45,127 bases of DNA from a virus: the IMG/VR virus record IMGVR_UViG_3300035043_000056, positions 1 through 45,127 of that record; one strand, written 5' to 3'. The notes beneath the pieces were generated by a model, which ran no database searches, had not been told where the DNA came from, and was given only the letters and a program-made list of their open reading frames with translations. Shown here piece after piece: positions 128-35,522 of the stretch (within the stretch, counting starts at the first letter, position 1; each line of letters begins with the position of its first letter). The position numbers and the translations under genes are program-made.

Positions 128-567
128 GTATCAATAGGCTTTGCACGTTTCACGGCTTCAGCTTGTAAAGCCTTCAAACGCCTGGCAAGCTGATCCTGTG
201 TCATGGTGCTAGGTGCATCATCAAAAGTTCCTAAGTTATTGAGTTCTAGGGCTTTTTCAGCTAACCATTGATTAGCCTTTAGGCGTGTTGCCTTTGATCC
301 TTCGTTATCCTGGGCGATCAACTTAATGTTTTTGATAGCCAAGAGGCCGGAAAGCTGAATATCACGCTCTAAATATTCTTTTACACGCTCTGAAAAAACA
401 TTACTCCCCATAATCTGCATAACTAGCTTTAAATCGCATGAGTACGCACTTGCAACCGTGTCGGGGTTTTCACCCTGCAACAGCTTCAAAACAATGTTTT
501 CCATTAAATCTTGTTTGATAAGGTCATTCATAAGGCCATAAATACAGGCTTTTGACAGGCTTTGCAA
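100..567 (-). CDS. Putative small terminase subunit or DNA-binding protein (tentative)
   Basis: 155-aa ORF. The tracked start is TTG at 567; an in-frame ATG at 531 is an alternative. The segment TRLKANQWLAEKALELNNLGTFDD resembles the oligomerisation helix of P27/Terminase_2-type small terminases. It lies next to the repeat-rich non-coding region. The C-terminus is VLDNMME. Confidence 0.4.
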   Translation of the reverse strand: MQSLSKACIYGLMNDLIKQDLMENIVLKLLQGENPDTVASAYSCDLKLVMQIMGSNVFSERVKEYLERDIQLSGLLAIKNIKLIAQDNEGSKATRLKANQWLAEKALELNNLGTFDDAPSTMTQDQLARRLKALQAEAVKRAKPIDTGVLDNMME

Positions 568-582
568 GATAAATAAAAAAAG

Positions 583-600
583 TGCTGGGCATTCCCAACA
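583..600. promoter_or_regulatory. Operator-like dyad box, copy A (minus-strand reading TGTTGGGAATGCCCAGCA)
   Basis: Lies in the divergent intergenic region 568-669. It matches the 18-bp boxes at 10895-10912, 20640-20657 and 44824-44841. Confidence 0.55.
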
Positions 601-669
601 AAAAGGACTAGATTATAAATAGATGTCGGGGTTTTCCTGACTTCATAAACAAAAACAAAGGATTAGGAC

Positions 670-825
670 ATGATCAAAACAATAACCCTTTGCACCGTTG
701 CCGCTGGTTTGCTGCTAGGTGCCTTTTATATCGGGATAAGCCGCGACCTATGCCGCCGCGACAATATCACCCCCGCCGAATATGCGGAAATGAAACTAGA
801 TTGCTCAAACTGGCTTTACAGATAA
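670..825 (+). CDS. Small single-pass membrane protein (51 aa)
   Basis: ATG at 670, TAA at 823-825. The N-terminal hydrophobic stretch is ITLCTVAAGLLLGAFYIGI. It is too short to appear in the ORF track. Confidence 0.45.
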   Translation: MIKTITLCTVAAGLLLGAFYIGISRDLCRRDNITPAEYAEMKLDCSNWLYR

Positions 826-2912: not shown

Positions 2913-2939
2913 CCCCCGCCTTGCGCGGGGGTTTTTTTT
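2913..2939 (+). terminator. Intrinsic terminator between convergent genes (possibly bidirectional)
   Basis: Stem CCCCCGC (2913-2919) pairs with GCGGGGG (2925-2931) around a 5-nt loop, followed by T8 (2932-2939). The reverse reading has an A-run before the stem. Confidence 0.75.
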
Positions 2940-3360
2940 AATCCATCATCATATTGCGAAACCATTTAGGCAACCGCTGATTAAGCCGCCATATTTCATG
3001 TGCCTGTATAGCTTTTAATGTTGCGTCTGTATGTGCATTCTTGCCGGATCTCAGGCGGTCGAATTTCACGCGCTCAAAAGGCTTGCCGGTTTGCCTGTAA
3101 AGATATTCGGGAATTGATGACAGACCCCTTACACCGCTTTTTAATCCTGAAGGCTTCACCGCTCTTTCAAGATGACCGCTTTTTATCAGTTCAGCTAAAT
3201 ATGCAGATAACGATCTATAGAATGTTTTGACCTCGACCCCTTCAGCTTCACTAATCAGGCTGCAAATACGATCATGTGAATACCATAGCCAAGCCTCTCT
3301 GTTATTCCGGCCCGAGGTCGCCGCCATGATCCTTTCTTTCCAAGTGAGGGTGGTTTTCAT
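2938..3360 (-). CDS. Putative winged-helix DNA-binding protein (140 aa)
   Basis: SLSAYLAELIKSGHLER resembles a wHTH recognition helix. The gene lies directly downstream of the iteron cluster and the primase-helicase. The C-terminus is FRNMMMD. Confidence 0.55.
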   Translation of the reverse strand: MKTTLTWKERIMAATSGRNNREAWLWYSHDRICSLISEAEGVEVKTFYRSLSAYLAELIKSGHLERAVKPSGLKSGVRGLSSIPEYLYRQTGKPFERVKFDRLRSGKNAHTDATLKAIQAHEIWRLNQRLPKWFRNMMMD

Positions 3361-3430: not shown

Positions 3431-3670
3431 ATGGACAAGTGGACATGCCTTTAGGCATTTGTCCATTTTGTCCACTCTCAGGGTTGCGGTGGACATTTAT
3501 GGTGTCCACTCATTGTCCACTGTGTCCACTCCATCCGTAACTAATTGATGTTTAACAGTTTCTTTCGTGATGCCTTTTGTCCTCAGCGTGTCCAATGCTC
3601 TTGAAAATGCTTTCATTTGCGTCTTATTTGGGATTGCCATAACTTCTAATTGGACAAGCGATTTGTCCAC
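3431..3670. repeat. Iteron cluster TGTCCAC / GTGGACA (candidate replication origin or operator array)
   Basis: Exact TGTCCAC at 3469-3475, 3503-3509, 3514-3520, 3523-3529 and 3664-3670. Exact GTGGACA at 3439-3445 and 3489-3495. One-mismatch copies at 3431-3437, 3460-3466 and 3650-3656. Confidence 0.65.
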
Positions 3671-5719
3671 TGAAACCCCGACATCGAATACCCCATTCGC
3701 TTTCAAAATATCATGGAAGATGACGCATTTTGCCTGAAGCTCGGTATGTGAATAATTGACATCCATGTCGGGGTTTTGAATTGCCTCATCATAATATTTG
3801 ATGGCGCGATATGCCGCCAGGGGTGCCGCGTCCAATTCCTCTTCAATCGATGGCGCGATGGCATCGAACTCGGTTTCACCTTCCACGACGACCGAACAGG
3901 TTGTGATCGGATCGCCATCCTCATCTTTTGCCAATTCGACGATGTTCAACCCGAAGCGTTTTTGCTGACCGGTTTCATCGTCCTTCTGTTTCGTGCTACT
4001 GAAGGAGCGATACCACTTCTCGCCGCGCTTTTCAGCCTTGACCTGGATCTCTGTATCGATGTTGCCTTTGAGCGACGAGTGACCCCGCGCCCCTGCGCTC
4101 TCATCCTTGCCGGTGTGATGCACGACCATAACGGCGACCTTGCGATTGAATTTAATGCTTGACATGTTGTTCACGAACTTCGTCATGTCCTCGCTGTTTT
4201 CATTCCCGCCACCAAATGCGGCACTGAGCGTATCGACGATCACGAGGCCGCATTTATAACCTGACTTCGCTTCCAGGTCGGTAATCAATTTGGCGATCAG
4301 CTTCAGGTGATCTTTGTTGTTCAGCAGGTCAACGTGCGCCGGATAATAAGCGAACGGGTGTTCCTTCAAACTCGTACCTGCCTTCACTCCGACACGCGAT
4401 CTTGCTGCCACGGCCCGTTTGCCGAATGATGCACCGCTTTCCGTACAGATATAAAGCACAGCCATTTTGCGCTTGCATTTAAAACCCGCCCAATCTTTAC
4501 CGGCAGCTAAGTGCATCGCCATGTCCAGCGTCAAAAAAGATTTTCCGCTTCCTGATGGGCCGAATAATACATTCACCGTTTCGGCATTCATAAAATGTTT
4601 GAAGAGTGGTGTGCCACTGCTTTTAATCGTTGCATCACCTGAACTGATGAATGCGGCAGTGTCGAATAATTGCTGGACTTTCTCACGTTCTTTTTGCAGC
4701 GGGTTTACCTGCGCGGCAATTCGATCAAGATCAACCTGGTCAAGTCCGGCTGTGAAATCGTTGCCTGATCGCTCATAGCAGCGAATAATTTCCCGCGCTG
4801 TGAGATCCTTATTCTTTCCATGTTCGAAATGCCAAAGGATTTGCGCTGTTTCCAGCAATGAAAACCCTTCGTATTTTAATTCCTTCGCCATCGTAAAGTC
4901 GCGCTCGGATCTCGATGGCTTCATGTCGATCTTGTTTGTCCACAGATCGTCGATCTTATCATTGCGGTTCCGCGCTGCCTCGAACTTATTTTTCACATCG
5001 GCTGGCAGCGGCAATTTCACTTTGTCCATATCAAGCTGTGTGTAATCGATCTCGCTTGTCGTGCTGTCTGCCTCTGAAGGCGTGACGAAATCAATCTGTT
5101 GGTATCGCTGACCAATGCGCGTCGATCTGGCGAGTGCCTTCTTCCTGCCTTTTTTCTTGGCGGTCGGCATGTTCCATGTGTACGGAATACGCATGATCCG
5201 GTCGATATTTTGAACGCGATCGGTGTCGTATTTATCTGCCAATCCTCGTGACAGTGCTTCGTATTGAAGGCGGGTTTCTTCTGTGACCGGCACCGGCTCA
5301 TTGAGCATCCAAAACGCCTGGATACCGCCTCCGCTGTCCGTTATAACTGTCGGCGGGTTATCGCCTTCCGCAAGCTGCTCTGCCAACTGGCGCAGCCTGA
5401 CACGCTCTTGATCGAAGTCCTTATCCTTTGCCGGATCTGCGTCCAACCAGATCGCGTTGATTTCCTTAATATGCTCTTTCTTTAATTTATTGTCCGGCGC
5501 GTCATCCTTTGGTGTATTGACAGAATAATAAAGGTTGCGCTTACCGTTATTTTTCTCGATAAAGTTTTCGATGGCTTCGCTGCCTACGGGCCGTGTCAGA
5601 CCGGTGACGTTTAAGCTGAAGGGATCGATGGCGACAACATTGATGAGCTTATCTTTAAAGAGCGTTTTGAGGAACGTTACAGCTTTTTTTGTGTTGTCGG
5701 ATAATTGATTTTCTGTCAT
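3497..5719 (-). CDS. Bifunctional primase-polymerase / RepA-DnaB-like helicase
   Basis: The N-terminus has prim-pol motifs (IWLDADP, DSGGGIQAFW). The centre resembles a primase C-terminal domain. The C-terminal half has Walker A GPSGSGKS and Walker B VIVDT. I prefer the ATG at 5719 (MTENQ) to the tracked start at 5806, because 5806 falls inside the predicted promoter. Confidence 0.88.
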   Translation of the reverse strand: MTENQLSDNTKKAVTFLKTLFKDKLINVVAIDPFSLNVTGLTRPVGSEAIENFIEKNNGKRNLYYSVNTPKDDAPDNKLKKEHIKEINAIWLDADPAKDKDFDQERVRLRQLAEQLAEGDNPPTVITDSGGGIQAFWMLNEPVPVTEETRLQYEALSRGLADKYDTDRVQNIDRIMRIPYTWNMPTAKKKGRKKALARSTRIGQRYQQIDFVTPSEADSTTSEIDYTQLDMDKVKLPLPADVKNKFEAARNRNDKIDDLWTNKIDMKPSRSERDFTMAKELKYEGFSLLETAQILWHFEHGKNKDLTAREIIRCYERSGNDFTAGLDQVDLDRIAAQVNPLQKEREKVQQLFDTAAFISSGDATIKSSGTPLFKHFMNAETVNVLFGPSGSGKSFLTLDMAMHLAAGKDWAGFKCKRKMAVLYICTESGASFGKRAVAARSRVGVKAGTSLKEHPFAYYPAHVDLLNNKDHLKLIAKLITDLEAKSGYKCGLVIVDTLSAAFGGGNENSEDMTKFVNNMSSIKFNRKVAVMVVHHTGKDESAGARGHSSLKGNIDTEIQVKAEKRGEKWYRSFSSTKQKDDETGQQKRFGLNIVELAKDEDGDPITTCSVVVEGETEFDAIAPSIEEELDAAPLAAYRAIKYYDEAIQNPDMDVNYSHTELQAKCVIFHDILKANGVFDVGVSVDKSLVQLEVMAIPNKTQMKAFSRALDTLRTKGITKETVKHQLVTDGVDTVDNEWTP

Positions 5720-5766
5720 ACTGGTTCTGCTTTTAGGGCCATTGTTTATCTCCGTTGGACAAAGGA

Positions 5767-5800
5767 GAACCCCATTGCGGATCGGTGGGGTTCTTTTTTT
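5767..5800 (+). terminator. Hairpin plus T7 run in the divergent control region
   Basis: GAACCCCA (5767-5774) pairs with TGGGGTTC (5786-5793), followed by T7 (5794-5800). On the + strand it reads as an intrinsic terminator. On the - strand it would form the 5' end of the primase mRNA leader. Confidence 0.45.
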
Positions 5801-5827
5801 ATACATCTACAATGAACTGAGCGTCAA
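5798..5827 (-). promoter_or_regulatory. Sigma70-like promoter for the primase-helicase unit
   Basis: Minus-strand reading is TTGACG (5827-5822), an 18-nt spacer, then TATAAA (5803-5798). Confidence 0.5.
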
Positions 5828-5859
5828 TATAAAATGTTGGTGATTTCCTTCTTTTTCTG

Positions 5860-5888
5860 TTGACACCGCTTTTTTGCTGTTCTATGTT
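5860..5888 (+). promoter_or_regulatory. Sigma70-like rightward early promoter
   Basis: TTGACA (5860-5865), a 17-nt spacer, then TATGTT (5883-5888). A degenerate operator box, TGTTGGGTAAATCCAGAC (5885-5902), overlaps the -10. Confidence 0.6.
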
Positions 5889-5953
5889 GGGTAAATCCAG
5901 ACGAACACGGACGACCGTGAACGTTGATGGAAAGAAACAAAGGAACTGCTGAA

Positions 5954-6205
5954 ATGAAAAAATATTTTTTAATTGCTACGGCAATCACCCTCTTGACAAC
6001 TCCTGCAATCGCTGAAACTGCCACAATCTGTTATCCTCCTATCGAGGTCCAGGCTGAGATCGTTTCTCAACAGATCGCACAAAAAGTGATCGACGAATAT
6101 TGCAACCAACTCGATCCTGTGTCCAGTGAAAAAGGTGCGATCATTATTTATTATGATCGTGATGCCAATGGTGAATGTGTCGCCAAAGTTAAAGTGGTGA
6201 AATAA
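5954..6205 (+). CDS. Small secreted protein (signal peptide)
   Basis: ATG at 5954 follows AAGGA. The N-terminus, MKKYFLIATAITLLTTPAIA|ETA, looks like a Sec signal peptide. Confidence 0.7.
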   Translation: MKKYFLIATAITLLTTPAIAETATICYPPIEVQAEIVSQQIAQKVIDEYCNQLDPVSSEKGAIIIYYDRDANGECVAKVKVVK

Positions 6206-6411
6206 TGCGACGGGGGGATAGCAGAGTTCGTACAGGTGCTTCGCTTCGATCAGTGTGTGGTGATGTCACCATTCGCGGTCAGGCGAAGCAGATTGCAGCC
6301 AAGTATGAAGAGCTTGCTATTGAGGCTCACCGGAACCGTGATAACGTAATGGCGCACAACTACCTGCAACACTCGGAACACTATAAAAGGGTTCAAGAAA
6401 ATGTCCAATAA
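6205..6411 (+). CDS. DUF4167-like protein
   Basis: IRGQAKQIAAKYEELAIEAHRNRDNVMAHNYLQHSEHYKRV follows the alphaproteobacterial DUF4167 pattern (G-A-Q-YE-LA, then ENY-QHAEHY-R). TAATG coupling to the upstream gene. Confidence 0.6.
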   Translation: MRRGDSRVRTGASLRSVCGDVTIRGQAKQIAAKYEELAIEAHRNRDNVMAHNYLQHSEHYKRVQENVQ

Positions 6412-7192
6412 ACTTCACATCGATACGATGGATGCGCGTGGCGCGGCTGTGCTGTCCGAATACCTTGAACTGCAAGGTTTCCGCTATGGATATAACGGTC
6501 GCGCCTGTCAACGTCGCTCACCGAGCAACATGCGCTTCGTCACTGTTGATCGTGATGCGCTGTTTTACAGCGGCAGCAAAGGTGCGGCAACCGATGTCAC
6601 ATGGCACGAGTTGACCAAGCATGAGATCAAAGAAATGCTGAAGGCGATCAAGGATGAGGCATTGTCGGCAGATGTGATGCGCGAAGCCAAATACCATCGT
6701 CTGTCGGCAACGCAATATCTTGTTGTGCAGGAATTCAAAAGCGAATTCGGCAATGATGAATATAAATCGATGTGCAGAAACTTCGGTAAATATAAAGAGG
6801 ATGTTTCTGAACTGTCCGGCTATCAACTGGAAAAGTGCATCTCAATGATGCAGGAGCAAATCAATTTACTCAAAGCAAGGCGGCTCACTGGTGACTATAC
6901 CAACATGTCGCGCAATCACCGCCTCGTGATGAGCAAAGACGAATCCAAACTCGAAAGAGTGTGGGTGACGCAGAATGGTTATGAGATGCCAATCTCAAAA
7001 ATGAAAGATGACCATCTGCACAACACGATACTGTTAATTGATCGCAGTATCAGCAAAGGCATGTACCGCCTTGGTGGGAACGAAGATCTTCCTGAACTCT
7101 TAGAGATGCTGGAAGTCGAACGCACCGAACGCGGTATGCCGATGCCTCTTATCCCGATCAAATCACTTGAATGGAGAAAAGCAAATGTCTGA
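6401..7192 (+). CDS. Hypothetical protein (263 aa)
   Basis: Long ORF overlapping both of its neighbours. Confidence 0.75.
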   Translation: MSNKLHIDTMDARGAAVLSEYLELQGFRYGYNGRACQRRSPSNMRFVTVDRDALFYSGSKGAATDVTWHELTKHEIKEMLKAIKDEALSADVMREAKYHRLSATQYLVVQEFKSEFGNDEYKSMCRNFGKYKEDVSELSGYQLEKCISMMQEQINLLKARRLTGDYTNMSRNHRLVMSKDESKLERVWVTQNGYEMPISKMKDDHLHNTILLIDRSISKGMYRLGGNEDLPELLEMLEVERTERGMPMPLIPIKSLEWRKANV

Positions 7193-7532
7193 CCATGACC
7201 CTGAAACTGGCGAAGTGAAAACTTCGACATCAACTGCCTTGGCTCTCAACAGCCAGGAATCCCTTGACGCTCTGAAGAAGGAAGTGATGGATGAATTCAT
7301 TACGTCCGATAAGGAAGTGTTCAAAGCCGCAATGCGTTCGCTGCTCACACAAGAGCAGAAGTTGAACAAACAAAAAGCGTCCATCGACCAGGACATCGAG
7401 CAGCTTCACAAAGCTCGTGCTGCACTGGAAGAGGCGTTCAAAAACGGCACTCTGCATTCCGCAGAAGATGCGCGTGGTGTTGTTCGCACTGTCGGTAAGC
7501 GTACCAACGTTCTTGACGATTTTGAGGATTAA
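7185..7532 (+). CDS. Hypothetical coiled-coil protein
   Basis: ATG at 7185 follows GGAGAA. The C-terminus is VLDDFED. Confidence 0.7.
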   Translation: MSDHDPETGEVKTSTSTALALNSQESLDALKKEVMDEFITSDKEVFKAAMRSLLTQEQKLNKQKASIDQDIEQLHKARAALEEAFKNGTLHSAEDARGVVRTVGKRTNVLDDFED

Positions 7533-7535
7533 GCC

Positions 7536-8156
7536 ATGTTGAACGGAAAAAAGAAATCCCATCTCGAAGCTCGTGCCTCACTGAAACAGAAAATGTTGAA
7601 GTCCGGCCCGTTGGCGTTCATCGAAGTAACAGCGGCAGAGTTGTCGATTACACTCAGTCCTGAATTTCCTGAACTGATCGAAGAGGTTCGTCAGGAACTC
7701 AAAGAGCGTGAAGTGAAAGCGGCTGTTGCCAAACAACGCGCAGAGCTTGGATCTGAAAGCGGCCTTGCAGCGATGGCGGGTTATCGTCATCCGATGGAAG
7801 GTTTGTCACGCGATCCTGAGTTCACGAAAGAGCCGGACCACAAAGCCCATCTCGAACGGCAGGAGCGCAGCGAACCTGGCGACCTGACATTTGAACAGGC
7901 GGTGCGGCCTCTCATTCGTTATCATTTCGGCCTGTCGTATTGCAGCTATTACACAGTGCCGCGCCTTGCGCTTCAGGAGATGCCGCGCTGGTGGCAGTGG
8001 CTCTTCTGCTTCCTTGTAAATATGCTGCCTGAAACCCCAACCTACACCTGCCAGCGTCGTGATAAGAAAGGTCACTTCATCAAGAATGATCCGTGGGCTA
8101 ACTATCGTCGCGGCAGTGTAAAAGACGTTCAAGAATTGGAGTGTGAACATGACTGA
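7536..8156 (+). CDS. Hypothetical protein (206 aa)
   Basis: Long ORF. I recognise no family. Confidence 0.75.
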   Translation: MLNGKKKSHLEARASLKQKMLKSGPLAFIEVTAAELSITLSPEFPELIEEVRQELKEREVKAAVAKQRAELGSESGLAAMAGYRHPMEGLSRDPEFTKEPDHKAHLERQERSEPGDLTFEQAVRPLIRYHFGLSYCSYYTVPRLALQEMPRWWQWLFCFLVNMLPETPTYTCQRRDKKGHFIKNDPWANYRRGSVKDVQELECEHD

Positions 8157-8715
8157 ACAAGTAGTAATTTTTGATCTCGATGGCACACTTGCTGACATCA
8201 ATCACCGGCTGCATTTCGTGCAGAACGGCAATAAACAGTGGGATGAGTTCTACAAGGCTTGTCCCAATGACGGGCCGAAAGAACCGATCATCGAGCTTGC
8301 CCGTATGTGTGACGATGCTGGTCACACGATTGTCATCTCGTCCGGTCGTTCTGAAAACGTGCGCCAGGAAACAATCGATTGGCTTGAAAAGCACAATATC
8401 AATTATGCGCGGCTTTTCATGCGGCCTGATAACTGCTACGTCAAAGACACGATCCTGAAAAAGAACTGGCTCGATGAGGGTTTATTTGGCCCGAAAGAGA
8501 ACATCCTGTTCGTTGTTGAAGATCGTGATAGCATGGTCGAGATGTGGCGCAAGCAAGGTCTGACATGTTTGCAGGTCGAACGCTGGATCGAAGAAGGTGA
8601 GATGTCCTTTCCATTGAAGAAAATCGAGATGGCGCGTAACATGGCAAAGTTCATTAGCGCGACCGATCAGGACAAACGCTTCAACGATTGGTGTATCGCA
8701 CAGGAGAGAAAATAA
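8149..8715 (+). CDS. HAD-superfamily phosphatase (T4 Pnk 3'-phosphatase / 5'-nucleotidase-like)
   Basis: Motif I FDLDGTLAD, motif II SSGR, motif III K-(x)n-VEDRDSMVEMWRKQGLTCLQV. I prefer the ATG at 8149 after GGAG to the tracked GTG at 8143. Confidence 0.8.
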   Translation: MTEQVVIFDLDGTLADINHRLHFVQNGNKQWDEFYKACPNDGPKEPIIELARMCDDAGHTIVISSGRSENVRQETIDWLEKHNINYARLFMRPDNCYVKDTILKKNWLDEGLFGPKENILFVVEDRDSMVEMWRKQGLTCLQVERWIEEGEMSFPLKKIEMARNMAKFISATDQDKRFNDWCIAQERK

Positions 8716-8783
8716 TGGTACGTTATATCTTACCTGTGCTGTTTTGGAGTTCGCTTTTCGCAATCATTTTTGTGGGGTTTTAA
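8715..8783 (+). CDS. Possible 22-aa hydrophobic micro-peptide
   Basis: Strong RBS (CAGGAGAG) 7 nt upstream and TAATG coupling. The product is MVRYILPVLFWSSLFAIIFVGF. Confidence 0.4.
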   Translation: MVRYILPVLFWSSLFAIIFVGF

Positions 8784-8784
8784 A

Positions 8785-8994
8785 ATGGCTGAAAAAAATA
8801 AATGGGGTCCATACGACATCACGCTCAAAGTGCTGAAGAACAAGGTGTACATCCTTGAATATAAACAGCACGAGAGCGAACATCGTAAGATCCTGACAAA
8901 GGCAATGGCGATCAGGATGGCGAACGATTTCAATGTGCGCCGTGAGATCCGCGACGTAATTATCGAAGCATTCAAAGAAGGAGTAATCGCATGA
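8785..8994 (+). CDS. Hypothetical protein (69 aa)
   Basis: ATG at 8785 lies inside the tracked ORF 8770-8994. Confidence 0.6.
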   Translation: MAEKNKWGPYDITLKVLKNKVYILEYKQHESEHRKILTKAMAIRMANDFNVRREIRDVIIEAFKEGVIA

Positions 8995-9254
8995 ACGCAG
9001 AAACAAAACACGGTGGACCCGAAAATCCCTATGAAACAATCAAGGTGATCGAAGCATGGGGTCTTGACCAGAATTTCAACCTTGCAAACGTTGTCAGCAA
9101 AATTTGCACTGCTGAAAAATCTGAAGACAATGTGCAAACGTTGAAAGATGCCCGATGGTATCTTGACCGCGAAATCAAGAAACTCGAAGGGATGCCTGAT
9201 CCGGCACAAATGGATTTACTCAACCAACCTGAAGGAGAAACTACCAATGGCTAA
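8991..9254 (+). CDS. DUF3310-like protein
   Basis: PYETIKVIEAWGL...FNLANVVSKI...LKDARWYLDREI follows the DUF3310 pattern. ATGA coupling. Confidence 0.55.
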   Translation: MNAETKHGGPENPYETIKVIEAWGLDQNFNLANVVSKICTAEKSEDNVQTLKDARWYLDREIKKLEGMPDPAQMDLLNQPEGETTNG

Positions 9255-9549
9255 AACCCGCAAAGCACCAACCGGTGCAAAACCTGCACAGAAGCCTGTT
9301 CAGAATGCACCAGCAGCGACAGCACCGCAACAAACTATCGTGATGGTTCACTACGTCTGCTTTTCATTTAAGAACGGCAACACGATCAAGGCACCTGTTG
9401 ACAGCGGTGATTCTGCAAAAGCTGTCCTGCGCGATGTCCTGGTGAGCGTCACCAGTGGTAAGCCGTACATCAACGAAGAGAAAGGCATCCTGTTCAATCC
9501 TGTTGAACTGAGCCATTCATTCGCCGTTGTTGAAAGGGCAGCACAATGA
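9247..9549 (+). CDS. Hypothetical protein with a basic, Pro/Ala-rich N-terminus
   Basis: ATG at 9247 follows GAAGGAGAA. Confidence 0.7.
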   Translation: MAKTRKAPTGAKPAQKPVQNAPAATAPQQTIVMVHYVCFSFKNGNTIKAPVDSGDSAKAVLRDVLVSVTSGKPYINEEKGILFNPVELSHSFAVVERAAQ

Positions 9550-9950
9550 ACCAAATCGAGCAAAAAACAGTACCGACGCTTTCCGAAACGGAAATGGCGG
9601 CAATCATCCTGACAGGCGCATGTCACAATCGCGCCTGGAATGCAGGATGGTGGCACGATCTCAATACCGGTGCGAAACTTGATCGCAACGTGCCTGAGAT
9701 GCTGTGTTTGATCCACAGTGAGATCAGCGAGGGTCTTGAAGGTTTCCGCAAAAACCTGAACGACGACAAGCTGCCTCACCGCAAGATGCTCGAAGTCGAA
9801 TTGGCTGATGCAGCCATTCGCATCTTCGATCTTGCTGGTGGTCTTGGCCTTGACATCGCTGGTGCCATCGCTGAAAAGATGGCGTTCAACGAGCAGCGTG
9901 AAGATCATAAGATCGAAAACCGCCAAGGCGAAAACGGAAAGAAGATCTAA
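9546..9950 (+). CDS. MazG-like nucleoside triphosphate pyrophosphohydrolase
   Basis: LIHSEISEGLE...ELADAAIRIFDLAG...KMAFNEQR is a typical MazG-family helix pattern. Confidence 0.78.
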   Translation: MNQIEQKTVPTLSETEMAAIILTGACHNRAWNAGWWHDLNTGAKLDRNVPEMLCLIHSEISEGLEGFRKNLNDDKLPHRKMLEVELADAAIRIFDLAGGLGLDIAGAIAEKMAFNEQREDHKIENRQGENGKKI

Positions 9951-9951
9951 C

Positions 9952-10194
9952 ATGTCAGGTGAGGTCATCTTTATGAACAAAAAAGGTGTCCACTCGTTCG
10001 ACGGGAAAGAGGTCAAGCCTCTTTTTCGTCGGGCGAAAACTGATGAAGAACGCAAGGAAGAATTTGCAGCATGGGCGAAGCTGAAGCCGGTTTATTTTCC
10101 GACCTGGGTGTGGGAAGAAATCAGCAAACGCTATCCTGATCGCTATAAAATGTTCTTGCCGGTTTATCAGGGACAGCGGGTAATTTTAACATAG
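9952..10194 (+). CDS. Hypothetical protein (80 aa)
   Basis: ATG at 9952, immediately after the MazG stop. Confidence 0.6.
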   Translation: MSGEVIFMNKKGVHSFDGKEVKPLFRRAKTDEERKEEFAAWAKLKPVYFPTWVWEEISKRYPDRYKMFLPVYQGQRVILT

Positions 10195-10204
10195 GAAAAA
10201 TCAA

Positions 10205-10498
10205 ATGCGAAATCTGAAATCAATTCTCTCGATGGGTGCTGCAATGTCTGCAATCGCAGCGATGGGTATGCAGGTGCAACGGCCTGTTCGTGCCACGCCT
10301 CGCAAGCCGAAGGTGATGGTCAAACCTGAGCCTTACAAACCAGTCGTCCACTACGTCAATCCTGACCCTCTGCAAGCGGCTCTGAACAAGATGACCAACT
10401 GGCAGCGCAATCAGGCCGGTCGTGCGTGTAAAGGCAATTTCCGTCGCCTCACACCCGAACTGCTGGAACACTTTTGCAATCTGAAGAAACCGGCATGA
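10205..10498 (+). CDS. Hypothetical protein with a hydrophobic N-terminus (97 aa)
   Basis: ORF whose N-terminus, SILSMGAAMSAIAAMGM, is signal-like. Confidence 0.65.
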   Translation: MRNLKSILSMGAAMSAIAAMGMQVQRPVRATPRKPKVMVKPEPYKPVVHYVNPDPLQAALNKMTNWQRNQAGRACKGNFRRLTPELLEHFCNLKKPA

Positions 10499-10686
10499 GC
10501 GCACGATACAAATTAAAAACTGGTCAGATCAATTTCGAGAGCCTGGACAACCCAGGTGCCTATTCCTGCATCGTGATTAAGGACGGGCAGTTTTACAACC
10601 TCTCGGAAGATCTGCGCCAGATGCTCATCGAAAAACTTCAACAGCCCCAACGGGCCGAAACCACCAGCTTAGAGGATATGTTCTAA
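10495..10686 (+). CDS. Small protein ending in SLEDMF (63 aa)
   Basis: ATGA coupling at 10495. It looks like a paralogue of the next gene (INFESLDNPGA versus ISFIRFGNTGA). Confidence 0.65.
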   Translation: MSARYKLKTGQINFESLDNPGAYSCIVIKDGQFYNLSEDLRQMLIEKLQQPQRAETTSLEDMF

Positions 10687-10892
10687 TGGCACAGTTTGAA
10701 TACGACATGGACAAAAACGACATCAGTTTTATTCGCTTCGGTAACACTGGCGCAGCCGGTTCTGAAAGCTGGATGAAAGGGTCGAAAATGAAACCTTATC
10801 AGATCAAAAAACTGAAAGAGCTTTTGAGATCGGTGGAAGGCGCAGATGTCAAGCCTGAAAACACCCCAAATCTCGAAAATATGTTCGAATAA
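10686..10892 (+). CDS. Small protein ending in NLENMFE (68 aa)
   Basis: TAATG coupling. Tandem paralogue of 10495-10686. Confidence 0.65.
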   Translation: MAQFEYDMDKNDISFIRFGNTGAAGSESWMKGSKMKPYQIKKLKELLRSVEGADVKPENTPNLENMFE

Positions 10893-10894
10893 AG

Positions 10895-10925
10895 TGTTGA
10901 CAATTCCCAACAGGAGTTTTAAAAA
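10895..10925 (+). promoter_or_regulatory. Sigma70-like promoter with overlapping operator box, copy B
   Basis: TTGACA (10897-10902), a 17-nt spacer, then TAAAAA (10920-10925). The dyad TGTTG-N8-CAACA (10895-10912) covers the -35. Confidence 0.55.
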
Positions 10926-10931
10926 TTGAGT

Positions 10932-11141
10932 ATGAAAGTTCCTACCCACAAAGAATTCACCGATCACATCAAAGACCATCTGAAAGAAACCGGCGAAAAG
11001 CCATCATCTTTCGGTCGTCGTGTATTGGGTGACAGTGGCGCAATCCCGCGCCTCTTCGAAGGCACCGATCCTCGGCTGTCAACGATGCAACGCATTTTGA
11101 AAGCAATCGAAAAGGCCGCGAAGAATGTTACTCGCTCTTGA
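10932..11141 (+). CDS. Small HTH DNA-binding regulator (candidate repressor/Cro-like), probably leaderless
   Basis: SFGRRVLGDSGAIPRLFEGTDPRLSTMQRILKAI is HTH-like. The ATG at 10932 lies 7 nt after the -10 and has no SD. The tracked start is TTG at 10926. Confidence 0.6.
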   Translation: MKVPTHKEFTDHIKDHLKETGEKPSSFGRRVLGDSGAIPRLFEGTDPRLSTMQRILKAIEKAAKNVTRS

Positions 11142-11604
11142 TCTCGGTACAAAAACAGGTTGGGCGACCAACAGTAATGCTGGCATCCAACATGGTATGC
11201 AGGAATTCAAGAACGACCGTTTTTCCGGTGGCGGGATGCGTTTCCTGAAATTCGAAAAATGGTTGAACGAGATTCCACGACCCACTCAGGTTGTGTTTGA
11301 AGAAGTGCGTCGTCATGCTGCCACCGATGCCGCGCATGTGTACGGGGGCTTGATGGCAATCGTCACAAAATTCTGTGAACAACATGGTATTCCATATCAG
11401 GGTGTTCCGGTTGGCACGATCAAAAAGTTTTGGACCGGCAAAGGCAACGGTAACAAAGAAGCCATGCTCAAAGCCGGTCATAAGCGCGGATTTAAAACCG
11501 TGGATGATGATAACGAAATGGATGCGATTGCCCTCTTGCATTACTGGATTTCAGAGTGTATGGTGGACAAATCCAATATTGAATTGGAAGACATGTTGAA
11601 CTGA
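11125..11604 (+). CDS. RuvC-like Holliday junction resolvase
   Basis: N-terminal LALDLGTKTGWA and C-terminal DDNEMDAIALLHY are the catalytic acidic motifs of phage RuvC-family resolvases. The C-terminus is ELEDMLN. Confidence 0.82.
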   Translation: MLLALDLGTKTGWATNSNAGIQHGMQEFKNDRFSGGGMRFLKFEKWLNEIPRPTQVVFEEVRRHAATDAAHVYGGLMAIVTKFCEQHGIPYQGVPVGTIKKFWTGKGNGNKEAMLKAGHKRGFKTVDDDNEMDAIALLHYWISECMVDKSNIELEDMLN

Positions 11605-11642
11605 TACCCTGCCTGAAATGATGAACTGAAAGACCTGCTGAA

Positions 11643-12989: not shown

Positions 12990-13008
12990 CCAAACCTCTA
13001 AAGGAGAA

Positions 13009-13626
13009 ATGACAATGCCTATCCAACTTATCATTACCGGCGATCACATCACCGATGTTTTTGCTGAAATCTCAAACTTCGCTGCTGCAATCGGTGGTGA
13101 TGCACCAAAAAACGAAGCTGGCGCGACGAGTGGGTCGAAAGGCTCGACCGCCTCTGCGCCATCCCCCAAGACTGCACCGGCATCGACAGAAGCCCCTGCA
13201 ACTGGTGGAAAAACCGATGCGAAACTGACTCGTAACGAGCAGGATGCAGCGGTTGAAGAAATGGTCGAAGCCGGTGAAAAAGATGCTCGTTACGAGCAGC
13301 TTACCAAAGGTCGCAAAAAAGCGGTCGATGACGGTATCGCCAAAAAAGCCGAAGCAGAAAGCACTGAAGACGCGCTTTCCGACATGTTCGACGACACCCC
13401 TTCAGAGAGTGAAGAGGAAGAAGTCGAAATCACTGCTGACACGATCCGCGACATGATGGGTAAACTCGGCAAAGATGCCAAGGGCAACCCGATCCAGGAA
13501 AACCTGCTCAAGATCAAATCCGTTCTTGAAAAAGCGATCCCGAAAGGCGTGGAAATCAAAGTCGGCAACATCCCTGCTGACAAGCTGCAAACCGTCTTCG
13601 CTGAACTCAAAAAGCTGGAAGGTTAA
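13009..13626 (+). CDS. Acidic low-complexity protein (205 aa)
   Basis: ORF following AAGGAG; ATG 13015 is an alternative start. It has an Ala/Pro/Ser-rich linker, an acidic block SESEEEEVE and an internal LSDMFDD. Confidence 0.7.
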   Translation: MTMPIQLIITGDHITDVFAEISNFAAAIGGDAPKNEAGATSGSKGSTASAPSPKTAPASTEAPATGGKTDAKLTRNEQDAAVEEMVEAGEKDARYEQLTKGRKKAVDDGIAKKAEAESTEDALSDMFDDTPSESEEEEVEITADTIRDMMGKLGKDAKGNPIQENLLKIKSVLEKAIPKGVEIKVGNIPADKLQTVFAELKKLEG

Positions 13627-13627
13627 T

Positions 13628-13819
13628 ATGGCATCGGTCGATATTGATTTTGATCGTATCGATCCCGAAAGGGAAACGAAACACGCATATTTCATCATCT
13701 TCGAAGAAGGTTTTGATGAGGTATCGTGTTTCGTTCCGAAGTCGCAGGTCGAGGTGGATGAAAAACGCAAGGTCGTCACGATGCCTGAATGGATGGCGAC
13801 AGAGAAAGGACTCGTGTGA
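13628..13819 (+). CDS. Hypothetical protein (63 aa)
   Basis: ATG at 13628, immediately after the upstream stop. Confidence 0.6.
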   Translation: MASVDIDFDRIDPERETKHAYFIIFEEGFDEVSCFVPKSQVEVDEKRKVVTMPEWMATEKGLV

Positions 13820-16178: not shown

Positions 16179-16184
16179 TCCTCT

Positions 16185-31200: not shown

Positions 31201-32244
31201 TTAAGCGATTGACACGATACCGGAAGTGTTACGCTGGCGGCAAACCAGACCGACAACATCCGTAACAGCACGATACATGACGTATTTATCGTGAGGACGC
31301 GCAGGGCTGTGACGCTTGTTGCGTTCACTGTCCATGTACATCGGATAAATGGCGTTCGTATCGATGATATACAGATATTTGCTTTCGCCTTCGTCGTCGA
31401 GGGTCGGGTCATAGTTGATGACCATACCTTTGAACGAAGTGTCGGCAACACTGATGTCGATGGAGCCTTTTTGCGCCCAACCGCTATCAGTGTAGGTGCC
31501 GTTCGTGCGAAGCTCTTTTTCCAACGCATCCAGGAACGCGGAACCCGCGAACATGACATGCTTCGGAGAGCCGTAACGCTTCAACTGACGGAACTCGTTT
31601 TGCAGAGCTTGTGCGATGGTCGAGTTCTGCGGCGAAGCTGTGGACAGGCCGAGGTTCACTCGGTTTCTCCACCAGGTATTCGTCGATTGGTCGATACCAC
31701 CTACAATCAATGCAGAGGTCGGGTTGGTCAGAATGAACGACTTGATGCCAGGGCAAAGTTCGCTGTCTTGCGAACCGTCGCGCCAGAACATTGCGTTCAT
31801 ACCACGAGCGTGACCTTCCATCATGTCTTCAATCTTATCGTCGAAGATGTCTGCAAGAGCAGTCATTTCACGATCCGAGTGACGACTTTCACCGCGACCG
31901 GTTGTGGTATCGCTGATCGAGATACCGTTCCGTTGCAGTTCATCAAACGTGACCTCGATACCAGCGTGGATACGCTTGTAAGGGAAGGTCGCCATTTTGA
32001 TGTTGGCAGGGTTGCTGTAGCTGACCGTATCGTCATGGCTGAAGCCTTGGATGCCGGTTGTGTACTCGCCTTTCACGCGAACAGTCAGGAATTCCTTACC
32101 CGCAGGGAAGGTCTTCGCTTTCTTTTCGAACATGCTCAGGAGAGGTTTGTCCTGGATCGTTTGTGAATAAATCGTACCACGGTCCAGGTGATGATCGAGA
32201 GTAGCGTTAGCCAAACTCTCTAGTTCTTGTACTGTAAATGACAT
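31201..32244 (-). CDS. Major capsid protein
   Basis: 347 aa, lying after the acidic scaffold gene and the portal. Size and placement match T7 gp10-class HK97-fold capsid proteins. Confidence 0.75.
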   Translation of the reverse strand: MSFTVQELESLANATLDHHLDRGTIYSQTIQDKPLLSMFEKKAKTFPAGKEFLTVRVKGEYTTGIQGFSHDDTVSYSNPANIKMATFPYKRIHAGIEVTFDELQRNGISISDTTTGRGESRHSDREMTALADIFDDKIEDMMEGHARGMNAMFWRDGSQDSELCPGIKSFILTNPTSALIVGGIDQSTNTWWRNRVNLGLSTASPQNSTIAQALQNEFRQLKRYGSPKHVMFAGSAFLDALEKELRTNGTYTDSGWAQKGSIDISVADTSFKGMVINYDPTLDDEGESKYLYIIDTNAIYPMYMDSERNKRHSPARPHDKYVMYRAVTDVVGLVCRQRNTSGIVSIA

Positions 32245-32263
32245 GATTCGCTCCTTTTTGTCA

Positions 32264-33316
32264 TTACTGGTTGAGCGTTCTGCGGATCACATCAAGGGTG
32301 TTTTTCGGTTCGGGCATGTTCGAAGCGGAGCTACCACCATCAACAGTTCTGACTTGCTTGCGCGGAGGTGTCAACTTTTTCAAATCGGCTTCGATTTCAG
32401 CCTTGGCCTGATTTGCAAGTTTGACAGCCTCGTCAACTGTCTTCGGCATTGTCCCGTTTCTCTGTGCGCGTACCAGCAACAACTCGACGCGATCAAGAAC
32501 GCGATCTTTTTTCTTCGCGTAGTCAGGGTCAGATGCCGCCCAACTTCTCTCCCAATCCGCTACCGCGTTTTGCATCGAGAGGTTGTTCTGCTGTTGACGG
32601 GTCGTGTCTTGCTGTTGCTGGTACTGCTGCCGTTCCTCATTGATGGCTTGCGAGGTGCGCCCCATCATGCGGTGGCGGGATAATTCGAAAGCATGTTCCT
32701 TCGTAATGTACCCCTGCTTCACTTGCTGCGCCAGATCAGGCTGCAAAACATTGCCGGTGATCTGAAGCAGGTCATTATAATATGGCGTGATGAGTTCCAA
32801 TGCCTTTGCAGGATCGTTCTTCATCAATGCGCCGATATGAAACAGTTCGTTTGCTTCATCTTGTGAGATGCGGTTTTCGTCAAGAAAACCCACAAACTTC
32901 CTGTAGTAACCAGCTTCAGTGTTTGCCTGTTCCAGTTGAGTTGAAAGAGTGTTTAACTTCTCTTTGCTCTCGCGGTACAAGCCTTTGAGTTTATCAAACC
33001 GTTCGGTCGTAGCCTTTTTTAAATGCTTACGCTCTTCGGGTGTGAAATCCTCAAAGTCGTCGTCAACTTCGTCCTTGTCGTCCTTGGGTTTTTTATCACC
33101 TTCGGCCTTCTTGGACTTATCTTCTTCTGAACTACCACCATCTTCATCTTCACCTTCTTTATCGAGCGCATCTTTGATGAGTTCGAATGTGGAAGGAGAA
33201 TCTTCCGATGGATTTGGATCGGACGAATCCGCAGTATCCTGGTCCGTGTCAGAAGTGGACGATGCTCCTGGTTTTTGCTGGTCCTCTAGTTCTTCAGTAT
33301 CGGCTGGCGAAGCCAT
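32264..33316 (-). CDS. Scaffolding protein
   Basis: A highly acidic N-terminus (DEDGGSSEEDKSKKAEGDKKPKDDKDEVDDDFEDF) followed by long helical, Gln-rich segments. Lies between portal and capsid. Confidence 0.72.
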   Translation of the reverse strand: MASPADTEELEDQQKPGASSTSDTDQDTADSSDPNPSEDSPSTFELIKDALDKEGEDEDGGSSEEDKSKKAEGDKKPKDDKDEVDDDFEDFTPEERKHLKKATTERFDKLKGLYRESKEKLNTLSTQLEQANTEAGYYRKFVGFLDENRISQDEANELFHIGALMKNDPAKALELITPYYNDLLQITGNVLQPDLAQQVKQGYITKEHAFELSRHRMMGRTSQAINEERQQYQQQQDTTRQQQNNLSMQNAVADWERSWAASDPDYAKKKDRVLDRVELLLVRAQRNGTMPKTVDEAVKLANQAKAEIEADLKKLTPPRKQVRTVDGGSSASNMPEPKNTLDVIRRTLNQ

Positions 33317-33404
33317 ATCTTAGCCTCCATTTAAAGGAAAGTGGACGTTTCACAACGTTCACGAATTTATAATCTCAAACCCCGACATCGAAGTCAAGCG
33401 TTTA

Positions 33405-35522
33405 TTACTGGATATTATCTACCGGTTGTGTATAGCCAGGTTGGGGTCCAGGTTCGTTTGTCTGTGTCGAGGTTTGATTAGTCGCACCTTCACCTCCTTG
33501 GGCCGCTGGATCGTCTTCAGTGCCAGCCGCGCCAGCCACCGCAGGTTTACCCATCTGCGCGTTAATTGCTTGAATTGATGGCATTCCTTCAACAATGATG
33601 TCATCGAGATCGATTTCCAGCAGATTTGCGTATCTACGGCCCAACGGGAAGGGGTTTACACCAGGAAGCTGCAACAGATACGGCATTCCGCGCTCCATAT
33701 TTGCCAGTTCTGCGGCCTTGTTCGGGCGACCGGAAGATCCGGCGCGAACTTTGAGGAAGATCTGCTTGGCAACGGTTTCACGGTCCATTTCAGGCCATAC
33801 CGCGCCAACCCCGACAATCTCTTCGACTGTTTCCACGGAAAGCTCCATAATCAAAAGCTGACCGAGCGCACCGAAAACATCGGTTAAGAATTCATCAAGG
33901 TCATCAACGTTCGATGACAAAGTGGACATGCGAGAACCTTCAGCAATCGAGCTTTCGGTCGCTGTCGCACCGGACACACCACCAATATTGGCTTCCTGAA
34001 CCCCGACAATGCGAAGAGTGTCTTCCATCTCGGAATTGGTTTCATAAAGCGCAGGATCAATCGGAACACTTTCAAAACGCTGAACGAGATCCGCAATCTT
34101 TTCACCCTGACCCAAACTCTCGAACTCAATAACAGCATGTGCCGGTGCGTTCGATAATTTTTCCTTGTCATTATCAGACAAGCGACCTTTGACTGCCGCG
34201 TATTTCGGCTTGTTCGCTTCACGATGAAGGCGACGATATTCGCGGGATCTGTTATATTCAGCCTGAACATGTTTGAGCATGTGAACATCGGACAACGGAT
34301 AAAGATCGGTTTCGCTTTCAACATCGTTGAATGTCTGTGCAAAAATAGGCCAGAATCCTTCCATCCAGTAATCCGGCTCTTTTGGTTTTACCAAGTGACC
34401 AGGATAACCATCTGCGATGGTGAATGTTTGCTGAAGTTCTTTATTATAAACTTCCCAAATGCAAACCATTCCAGCTTCTTTTGAATGTTTGGAACCAGCG
34501 TCATCGCTGTCTGCGCGGCGATGATATTCAGCAATCTCACCTTTTCCATCCTGCTTGTATGCGGTGAAGCTCTTACCAAGGTCAACATTATAGATTTTCT
34601 TCACCTCGTCAGGTGATTTGTGAAATTCACGAGCAACCCATCCTGCACCGATGAAACCCATCAACTGTGTACAGCGTGGATCAACAATAATCTCGGTTGC
34701 ACGAGGGAACATAAATTTCGGACCTTCGCGCACAATGATATTTTGTTTGTTTTCGAGATCCGCAATGATATTCTGAAGCTCAAATTCCTCACTCTTGCAG
34801 GAATCGTACATCTCACCATCAATGTAATCCTGCATCCGACGCTGAAGCTCACCGAGCTTGTTACGCGAATCTTCTAGGCTTGATGTTTCATCCGGTGAAA
34901 GTTCTGCATACTCACGCTGGAAGCCGAGCATCACATACGAAACACCACAGGTCTTTGCGCGGCGAACGAAGGCTTTCATCAAAGGTTTCAGGCGAGGTTT
35001 TTGTTCGTTGGCATAATAGTCGAAAAGGATCTCCAACGTGCGCCCGATCTTTTTGAGCATTTCATATTTCTGGCGACCTTGCTCAATGTCCTGGACCATT
35101 GCTGCCGCATTCGGATCACCCGCCATCGCGTTTTGTAGCGCAGCCATCGCTGTGTCGGGTTTTTCATCCCACATCTTGTAATCCAACGTTTTGCGCTTCT
35201 CTGCTGTCGCTGTCGGGTTTTTAGCGTAAAGTGATGCAACCGCCTGGTTCAAATACTGGTTGATGATCGGAACAGTGTAGTTTCCACCGTCAACCCATTC
35301 TTTAGAACCACCTTGACGCGCAACCATCATGTCTTCGCGCATCCGTTTGAAATCTTTTTCAAAATATTTTTTAGAAGCAAGGATCTTTTGCTGCCATTTT
35401 TTGACAGATTGTTCTTCAGCCGGATCGAGTGTCGGGGTTTCGCGCTGCATACCGCTTTGCGATTTACCGGTATCGTCACCACCTAACATGTCTTCGAGAG
35501 ATAAATCAGCCACAGCTACCAT
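33405..35522 (-). CDS. Portal protein
   Basis: 705-aa ORF overlapping the TerL stop, with an acidic Gly/Ala-rich C-terminal tail. This is the canonical portal position. Confidence 0.82.
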   Translation of the reverse strand: MVAVADLSLEDMLGGDDTGKSQSGMQRETPTLDPAEEQSVKKWQQKILASKKYFEKDFKRMREDMMVARQGGSKEWVDGGNYTVPIINQYLNQAVASLYAKNPTATAEKRKTLDYKMWDEKPDTAMAALQNAMAGDPNAAAMVQDIEQGRQKYEMLKKIGRTLEILFDYYANEQKPRLKPLMKAFVRRAKTCGVSYVMLGFQREYAELSPDETSSLEDSRNKLGELQRRMQDYIDGEMYDSCKSEEFELQNIIADLENKQNIIVREGPKFMFPRATEIIVDPRCTQLMGFIGAGWVAREFHKSPDEVKKIYNVDLGKSFTAYKQDGKGEIAEYHRRADSDDAGSKHSKEAGMVCIWEVYNKELQQTFTIADGYPGHLVKPKEPDYWMEGFWPIFAQTFNDVESETDLYPLSDVHMLKHVQAEYNRSREYRRLHREANKPKYAAVKGRLSDNDKEKLSNAPAHAVIEFESLGQGEKIADLVQRFESVPIDPALYETNSEMEDTLRIVGVQEANIGGVSGATATESSIAEGSRMSTLSSNVDDLDEFLTDVFGALGQLLIMELSVETVEEIVGVGAVWPEMDRETVAKQIFLKVRAGSSGRPNKAAELANMERGMPYLLQLPGVNPFPLGRRYANLLEIDLDDIIVEGMPSIQAINAQMGKPAVAGAAGTEDDPAAQGGEGATNQTSTQTNEPGPQPGYTQPVDNIQ

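Follow-up and report, generated by a model that had tools for sequence, protein, structure and literature searches.

Coliphage 186 Apl and P2 Cox direct excision and also repress promoters, in both cases by way of multiple short asymmetric boxes. P1 C1 controls scattered promoters through dispersed single asymmetric operators of 17 bp, and in P22 an operator of the Arc/Mnt system located in the promoter spacer blocks RNA polymerase. BldC protomers read asymmetric repeats of 9 bp (PMC5859096). Gp36 of D29, a Xis homologue in a lytic phage, represses early as well as late genes via GC-rich direct repeats (PMC12266134), and the repressor of L5 and the cluster A phages is bound as a monomer to an asymmetric 13-mer at more than 20 genome sites, at promoters and elsewhere (PMC9283540). 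Here we describe a short DNA word, TGTCGGGGTT, that is dispersed over the genome of an uncultured phage, IMG/VR record IMGVR_UViG_3300035043_000056 (positions 1 to 45,127; this whole stretch of 45,127 nucleotides is called the window in the following). On balance we consider it probable that this word is the operator of a phage-encoded DNA-binding protein that acts mainly by repression, a moonlighting BldC/Xis-like protein of 66 amino acids (aa) being the best candidate for the reader.

On both strands of the window TGTCGGGGTT occurs in 11 exact copies, where 0.09 are expected. This recount agrees with a first-pass annotation made from the sequence alone, which had drawn attention to the word. 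In 100 dinucleotide-preserving shuffles, a control suggested at that stage, the mean was 0.09 and the maximum 1. With up to one mismatch, 17 matches were found versus 2.4 expected, and TGTCGGGGTT is the top over-represented 10-mer in the window. The consensus in the lineage is (A)TGTCGGGGTTT, corresponding to 10–11 bases. Ten of the coordinates of the first-pass annotation stand, and the second copy, placed there at 623–632, is located at 624–633. The copies are the following:

459 to 468, plus strand: inside a small-terminase-like (terS-like) gene, in the codons of a conserved G-E-N-P-D
624 to 633, plus strand: divergent control region between the terS-like gene and rightward accessory genes
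3674 to 3683, minus strand: 3′ end of the primase-helicase gene, followed directly by a GTGGACA iteron
3766 to 3775, plus strand: primase-helicase gene, inverted pair with the copy at 3674, preceded by TTGACA-N4 and without a good −10
20567 to 20576, plus strand: first codons of the gene for the 66-aa protein, about +45 from its promoter
20625 to 20634, plus strand: spacer of the promoter for the BldC/Xis-like gene and the integrase
20808 to 20817, plus strand: 3′ end of a gene for a 716-aa structural protein, 166 bp upstream of the xis-like promoter
33378 to 33387, minus strand: spacer of the capsid promoter, which precedes the scaffold and major capsid genes
33807 to 33816, minus strand: inside the portal gene (I-V-G-V), private to the window
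33999 to 34008, minus strand: inside the portal gene (I-V-G-V), private to the window
35430 to 35439, plus strand: inside the portal gene (T-P-T) close to its 5′ end, private to the window

Three of these copies are intergenic and eight lie inside open reading frames (ORFs). Relative to the local coding strand seven read AACCCCGACA and four read TGTCGGGGTT, and along the genome the orientation is without polarity. The copies are clustered, with a median nearest-neighbour distance of 165 bp (P=0.002, simulation), and the stretch 3776–20566, described earlier as an empty replication module, is indeed free of them. Within the clusters the copies are single, 45–430 bp apart and in both orientations, and no adjacent second repeat is kept in the flanks. 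The flanks share only an A at −1 and a T at +1; since they are otherwise unrelated, a longer repeat or a mobile element could be ruled out. Three one-mismatch copies at 18040, 19406 and 21263 all carry the same substitution (TGTCAGGGTT), and that at 19406 is kept in a relative (A, see below). These copies may be weaker sites.

To place the word in its lineage, it was counted in syntenic contigs from IMG/VR and other metagenomes whose large terminase (TerL) is 72–91% or whose DNA polymerase is 57–80% identical to that of the window (relatives, designated A to D or by L numbers). Their DNA is only 65–76% identical to the window. The relatives contain 29 exact copies in 304 kb (0.95 per 10 kb), whereas 82 more distant polymerase-sharing loci, together 1.03 Mb, contain a single one (0.01 per 10 kb), which is the chance level. 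The motif is thus over-represented in the phage lineage beyond composition, in line with the count in related phages that the first-pass annotation had put forward, and it can serve as a practical marker for lineage members and their promoters in metagenomes. Conservation at orthologous positions, also considered there, was found for the promoter-associated copies, and the portal copies are private. Other genomes possess private intragenic copies of their own, in TerL (B), in the portal gene (L012) and in structural genes (C and B). Around the copies synteny is kept and unbroken.

Codon usage confirms the earlier proposal that the word is conserved at the DNA and not at the protein level. Its in-gene readings are V-G-V (three times), T-P-T (three times) and N-P-D (twice), as described before, and they use rare codons: GGG makes up 8% of the Gly codons of the window and CCC 12% of the Pro codons. 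The share of each tripeptide that is encoded by the motif is given below.

V-G-V tripeptides: 3 of 11 encoded by the motif, 0.08 expected from codon usage
T-P-T tripeptides: 3 of 4 encoded by the motif, 0.12 expected from codon usage
N-P-D tripeptides: 2 of 7 encoded by the motif, 0.19 expected from codon usage

Moreover, at the start of the 66-aa gene the overlying copy encodes K-T-P-T in the window and C, and K-P-R-Q in A. Because rare codons are used and one kept copy is read in differing frames, the motif is conserved as DNA.

The most conserved copy is that of the capsid promoter, which sits between the portal gene and the scaffold/capsid genes, 13 kb from the xis-like gene:

33369 to 33397, minus strand: sigma-70-type promoter TTGACT-17-GATTAT with extended −10 TG, found by an independent promoter scan
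32264 to 33316: scaffold gene, downstream of the capsid promoter
31201 to 32244: major capsid gene, downstream of the capsid promoter

The arrangement TTGACW-N4-TGTCGGGGTT-TGA-(−10 hexamer) occurs in at least 12 distinct relatives, with portals 71–83% identical. The N4 and the −10 hexamers vary among these, and the geometry is fixed. In L013, with 52% portal identity, a promoter is found at the same place with an unrelated spacer.

The leader of the scaffold/capsid transcript (33320–33362, minus strand; L001, L003, L008–L014, L126–L141) opens with a small 5′ hairpin. Its loop is GUGA in most cases, GAAA in two, GUUA in one, UGUGAUG (7 nt) in L141 and UCGUGAG in L009, and its stem shows compensatory substitutions (ACGUU/AACGU, GCGUU/AACGC, ACGC/GCGU, GUAGG/CCUAC). 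For about two-thirds of the relatives a second leader hairpin is predicted, in which the GGAGG ribosome-binding site is paired.

The second promoter with a motif spacer drives the 66-aa gene and the integrase:

20614 to 20642, minus strand: sigma-70-type promoter TTGACA-17-TAATAT of the 66-aa helix-turn-helix (HTH) gene and the integrase, found by promoter scan

This independent scan agrees with the previous assignment of copy 20625 as the spacer of a TTGACA-17-TAATAT promoter. In the window, A and L025 the spacer word is in reversed orientation; in C and L155 it is in forward orientation with the geometry of the capsid promoter; in B, D, L026 and L023 it is truncated to ATGTCGGG, abutting the −10. 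Across relatives the xis-like promoter keeps its −35 and an upstream palindrome, while the spacer element varies. A second copy, 45–59 bp further downstream and over the start codon, is found in the window, A, C and L025. For copy 20808 the orthologous site in A has one mismatch.

Two further elements were noticed at this promoter. The palindrome TGGRAAWTYCCA is located at 586–597, 20643–20654 and 44827–44838, with 7 strand-matches versus 2.4 expected; these places are near the terS-like promoter, directly upstream of the xis-like −35 and in the stretch past terS. Relatives keep the palindrome at the xis-like promoter, and so does the distant lineage of L031, which does not have the 10-mer; a dimeric factor probably binds there. 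The −10 and the beginning of the xis-like transcript overlap with a perfect inverted repeat of 13 bp, ATATATCCTTATA-N9-TATAAGGATATAT (20583–20617), and in A, B, C and D boxes of TATAAGG type are found again, as direct or inverted repeats. This repeat could be a recombinase core site or another operator.

At the terS-like end of the genome, copy 459 is kept in C (193) and L151 (10064), and the spacing of 163–165 bp to copy 624 is kept in both. Copy 624 itself is kept in C (28), L151 (9901) and B (21158), and the variant TGACGGGGTT occupies the same position in D and L150. In B, C and D the copy is located 8–12 nt downstream of a conserved outward promoter TGGACA-18-TATAAT, that is, approximately at the transcription start. 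In the window it lies 6 nt from a minus-strand TATAAT, which matches the earlier description of a copy beside an opposite-strand TATAAT. The copies consequently overlap core promoter elements at kept positions in two spacers and at one start. On the other side of this region, in the window (531–570) and in B, C and D, a −10 hexamer (TATTTA, TATATA, TATTAT or TATTGT) ends 6–7 nt before the ATG of the terS-like gene, whose mRNA appears to be leaderless.

A third group of copies is found in the primase region. The composite of motif and GTGGACA that is formed by copy 3674 occurs also at A 44242 / L151 6915, and further copies in the same primase region were observed at B 18862, B 19272 and L150 6633; copy 3766 is not kept in A. 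The adjoining cluster of GTGGACA / TGTCCAC iterons (3439–3529 and 3664–3670) is DnaA-box-like, with 7/9 matches to TTATCCACA, and is located at the 3′ end of the primase gene, upstream of a gene for a 140-aa winged-helix protein. In relative A (A/L104) AGTGGACAAA occurs seven times. This cluster is likely an origin or an operator array.

From these placements we infer that a protein binds the motif. If so, a protein bound in the 17-bp spacer or on the transcription start would occlude RNA polymerase and thereby repress transcription, with spacer sites at the capsid promoter and at the promoter of the 66-aa gene and integrase, and with a start-site copy at the divergent promoter beside the terS-like gene. 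Many repressors act from such positions. Repression rather than activation is expected because the −35 is consensus or near-consensus, the spacer has 17 bp and, in the case of the capsid promoter, the −10 is extended. Since the spacer word flips or shifts and yet stays in the spacer, occupancy seems to matter more than orientation, and mechanisms that demand an exact orientation toward RNA polymerase fit poorly. The site is short and asymmetric, which makes a monomer-type winged-HTH reader probable, with one winged-HTH protomer per site. Gene-internal copies a few hundred bp away, kept in spite of codon preference, may be auxiliary and could serve local occupancy, looping or a block of read-through. 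Among the roles listed in the first-pass annotation, that of a site for Xis or another phage DNA-binding protein is accordingly the best supported, while integrase arm sites, hotspots and nicks find no support, as discussed below.

Three DNA-binding candidates are kept in the motif-bearing relatives:

20381 to 20581, minus strand: 66-aa MerR-type winged-HTH protein (BldC/excisionase-like; Pfam MerR_1 8e-10, HTH_17 8e-7)
100 to 531, minus strand: 143-aa small-terminase-like HTH protein (155-aa ORF, 143 from the ATG), first gene of the leftward late block
2938 to 3360, minus strand: 140-aa winged-helix protein, with the primase and the iterons upstream of its gene

The gene labels assigned at first pass were broadly right for xis (66 aa), portal, integrase and iterons; the TerS-like label of the 155-aa ORF is weakly supported. 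The 66-aa protein is of the kind expected for a BldC/Xis-type reader, a MerR-like protein of about 60–70 aa that consists of the winged HTH alone. Its best NCBIfam match is the BldC family (4e-11, 42.5 bits, below the 77-bit cutoff), followed by excisionase models. It is present in A, B, C and D, which are all motif-bearing relatives examined, and in B and D the gene and the motif are present with no integrase at the syntenic position. The pattern V..RT.+RWR..G...P...T.G.HSRY is invariant across the homologues compared, including L031/L032, which are without the motif. VTVRTVERWR is no more than the most frequent form, so that the conservation is in part generic to the fold. The DNA-reading segment of the 66-aa protein is the most conserved among the three candidates. 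Autoregulation is suggested by the copies at its own promoter and start codon. At the level of sequence comparison the 66-aa BldC/Xis-like protein is thus the best candidate for the motif reader.

The 143-aa protein has an N-terminal HTH and a helical hairpin like the small terminases of NV1 and PaP3 (E 0.3–1, TM 0.5–0.6). No match was found in Pfam, PHROGs or NCBIfam, and a homologous-protein search yielded 58 homologues. The predicted recognition helix varies within the terS-like family. We regard this protein as an alternative candidate binder. The 140-aa protein shows a generic winged-helix fold, for which no specific family was found; it is a further alternative, more likely as the binder of the GTGGACA iterons.

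A distant lineage (L031, also L029, L030 and L032) offers a comparison for the 66-aa protein. The homologue of L031 has a changed recognition segment, VSKRTLIRWR, and in this contig ATGTCAT, which shares ATGTC with the motif, is enriched with 10 copies in 10.2 kb versus about 2 expected. The xis-like promoter of L031 carries two direct ATGTCAT copies, one in the spacer and one overlapping the −10. This hints that recognition segment and word co-vary between lineages. A 27-bp-spaced pair of GATGTCATTTTCTTA was additionally observed at 7208 and 7235 in L031. In a bolder version of the operator reading, which we offer tentatively and hold for rather doubtful, the 66-aa protein would be an excisionase-derived BldC-like monomer serving as the global regulator of a widespread lineage at single 10–11-bp sites, in spacers and at gene-internal positions that resist codon bias. 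Autoregulation and replication-driven titration of sites could then time the release of the late promoters, and the 3′ half of the site (GGGGTTT vs. AT...) would co-evolve with the recognition helix.

Several points weigh against an operator read by the 66-aa protein. Tandem head-to-tail repeats of about 9 bp, which BldC/Xis-type proteins usually need, were not found, and the terS-like HTH and the 140-aa winged-helix proteins also adjoin conserved copies. The promoter of the replication module (5860–5888) is without a copy, so that the immunity circuit would be incomplete. A binder made from a self-repressed promoter leaves the release of capsid expression unaccounted for. Three contigs without detectable homologues of the window proteins (L118, L153 and L158) share the promoter geometry, leaving room for a host factor. 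Finally, common descent may account for part of the conservation seen in the spacer geometry.

Among the alternatives, packaging would make the motif a pac-type word of the small-terminase-like protein and its other copies secondary terminase sites. Such a role could draw on the two kept copies in and 165 bp upstream of the terS-like gene, whose spacing is kept in C and L151, on the gathering of private copies in packaging genes (portal of the window and of L012, TerL of B) and on the HTH and helical hairpin that the 143-aa protein has in common with the NV1 and PaP3 small terminases. It leaves unexplained the spacer placement at the capsid and xis-like promoters and the adjacency to the iterons; the motif is invariant, unlike the predicted recognition helix of the terS-like family, and the small-terminase label is weakly scored (values given above). 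We therefore regard packaging as improbable.

A positive factor is likewise unlikely, in the sense that the spacer copy would load an antiterminator, such as lambda Q or Pseudomonas aeruginosa AlpA, or an activator for the late genes. The elements bound by Q and AlpA lie between the −35 and −10 of constitutive promoters (PMC9371919). At the capsid promoter the element is likewise located between −35 and −10, and the geometry is invariant. C/L003 also has an extra strong hairpin followed by U6 between the capsid promoter and the scaffold gene. This terminator-like hairpin is found only in C/L003 among the capsid-promoter leaders, which show no conserved −10-like pause element downstream; most relatives possess neither a terminator nor a kept pause, only the small 5′ hairpin with its 4–5-nt loop, mostly of GNRA type. 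Comparison with Pfam, PHROGs and NCBIfam, which covered part of the ORFs, revealed no protein like Q or AlpA. In AlpA the DNA-contacting residues are found at 128–142 (PMC9371919), and with 66 aa the candidate of the window is too small for a ring at the RNA exit channel. An AlpA-type antiterminator role of the 66-aa protein was rejected on its size and on the absent pause element and terminator, judged against that system (PMC9371919). At the xis-like promoter, moreover, the word occurs in both orientations and at shifted positions, eight of the eleven copies are outside promoters, and a 17-bp spacer with an extended −10 needs no MerR-style realignment.

We give as little credence to a host word, that is, a Chi-like or uptake sequence or the site of a host transcription factor or other host factor. 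A scan for TTGACW-N4-motif-TGA over 241 million metagenome records returned 12 matches, 6 of them from this phage family. What speaks for a host word is a group of three contigs: L118 (96–115), L153 (1695–1717) and L158 (1365–1387) show TTGACA-N4-TGTCGGGGTT-TGA with a good −10 (TATACT, TATACT and GAGTAT, respectively), and no homologue of the window proteins was detectable in these contigs. Their promoters could go back to a host factor or a mobile regulator in common, or to chance. In L118 the motif promoter is divergent from a terS-terL pair, whose terS-like protein is without detectable homology to that of the window. Most other IMG/VR matches to the pattern are due to chance and lie inside genes. 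The small number of matches in so many records is not that of a general promoter element, and in the 1.03 Mb of related, more distant phage and metagenome-assembled genome (MAG) loci the word is at the chance level. Polarity of orientation along the genome is lacking as well, and Chi or uptake signals are not expected at fixed spacer positions.

Still less probable is a function as excisionase sites alone, with the copies shaping an attP intasome and having no transcriptional role. In its favour, three copies of the same orientation surround the xis-like gene within 250 bp, a pair of these flanks the 13-bp inverted repeat at about 20583–20617, a possible recombinase core, and the 66-aa protein matches excisionase models. 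The most conserved copy, however, is that of the capsid promoter 13 kb away, B and D keep motif and 66-aa gene but have no syntenic integrase, and a possible attP relic at 44717–44785 has no copy nearby. The integrase is the following:

19551 to 20423, minus strand: Xer-like tyrosine integrase, 290 aa, with a SAM-like domain from residue 17 and without an arm-binding domain

Integrase arm-type sites, a role proposed at first pass, were accordingly rejected: the enzyme has no arm-binding domain, the copies extend over 35 kb, and B and D have the motif without a syntenic integrase.

Nicks, modification sites or recombination hotspots at module boundaries, partly suggested in the first-pass annotation and in keeping with copies near module junctions, are extremely unlikely, since no supporting evidence was obtained, both strands carry copies, genes for nickases or modification were not recognised beside them, synteny around them is unbroken, and the fixed placement in the spacer, left unexplained, points together with the orientation flips in one promoter to occupancy by a protein. 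An RNA-level role is unlikely too, as the promoter-spacer copy is untranscribed.

The genomic setting is that of a circularly closed genome of 45,000 bp, as the window has an exact 127-bp end overlap (1–127 = 45001–45127); its coding fraction is 92%. The source is an uncultured podovirus-like phage without a cultured close relative. Megablast of both window halves against GenBank phages gave no match, a 39-nt promoter query gave chance matches only, and the best protein-level matches reach ≤35% identity for TerL and ≤49% for DNA polymerase. On the replication side the genes encode a primase-helicase, a DNA polymerase, an SNF2 helicase, a PD-(D/E)XK nuclease, an Enc34-type SSB and a GapR-like protein; the other contents are the Xer-like integrase, large terminase, portal, SU10-type capsid and adaptor, and a lysis cassette. 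Three smaller genes are worth listing:

15208 to 15489, plus strand: gene of the Acb2/Tad1-hairpin family, a nucleotide sponge countering host defence signalling
16413 to 16763, plus strand: GapR-like nucleoid protein
6205 to 6411, plus strand: DUF4167 protein

The GapR-like and DUF4167 families are typical of Alphaproteobacteria, and the two genes hint at an alphaproteobacterial host. A related contig of 6 kb had been assigned to the bin of an Opitutaceae MAG. All contigs bearing the integrase of the window are viral-sized, and a scan of a genome collection with the DNA polymerase revealed only distant MAG contigs, none with the motif.

In the window no Rfam family was found at gathering thresholds and no tRNA at default settings. 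With relaxed settings ARAGORN reports a degenerate tRNA-like sequence at 44717–44785 (minus strand), tRNA-Pro-like with a good T-arm (GGTTCGATCCCC) and acceptor 3′ strand and without a counterpart in relatives. This relic may mark attP, though it is located about 20 kb clockwise from the integrase gene. A further repeated word, CGATTGCAG(C), and its complement occur nine times within a gene for a 1150-aa fibre-like protein (42752–43742) and three more times elsewhere; these repeats are probably due to a repeated peptide module and not a DNA signal.

Taken as the operator of a phage protein, the motif provides a concrete and testable regulatory code: a single short word, with three conserved promoters as its targets and three proteins as candidate readers. 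Together with its operator, the promoter could find new use as a repressible part. The general principle of phage regulation would remain unchanged, the case being one of fairly ordinary gene control. Should the 66-aa protein be the reader, it would be a second independent case after D29 Gp36 in which a protein of excisionase type has become a general regulator of phage transcription, and one outside the actinobacteriophages.

Comparison with the described systems shows likenesses and differences on every side. Like D29 Gp36 and BldC, the candidate is a small MerR-type winged-HTH protein of about 60–70 aa without a dimerisation or effector domain, to be paired with short asymmetric DNA repeats, and as with Gp36, which acts in a phage not needing excision, the 66-aa gene is kept in relatives without a syntenic integrase (B, D). 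In contrast, BldC forms head-to-tail multimers on tandem 9-bp repeats of AATT type, and Gp36 needs two GC-rich repeats 13 bp apart, whereas here single 10–11-bp words are found 45–430 bp apart and in both orientations. The boxes of Cox and Apl, compared by description only, are arrayed at the switch region and attP and not dispersed, as here, with some in structural genes. With L5 the system shares one asymmetric word at many dispersed sites. The L5 sites, however, are located in short intergenic gaps and their orientation follows transcription, while here 8 of 11 are inside genes and orientations are mixed (7 vs 4); a 183-aa repressor of L5 type with HTH and stoperators was not recognised in the window. 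For lambda Q, 21Q and AlpA the position of the element between the −35 and −10 of a constitutive late promoter is alike (PMC9371919); what distinguishes the present case is that no pause element, no general terminator and no Q-like protein was found. The dispersed operators resemble in turn those of P1 C1, and the operator in the spacer that of P22, with different proteins and site lengths. We thus place the motif system, as a probable case, among the phage regulators with dispersed operators, a known general kind, here in an uncultured lineage.

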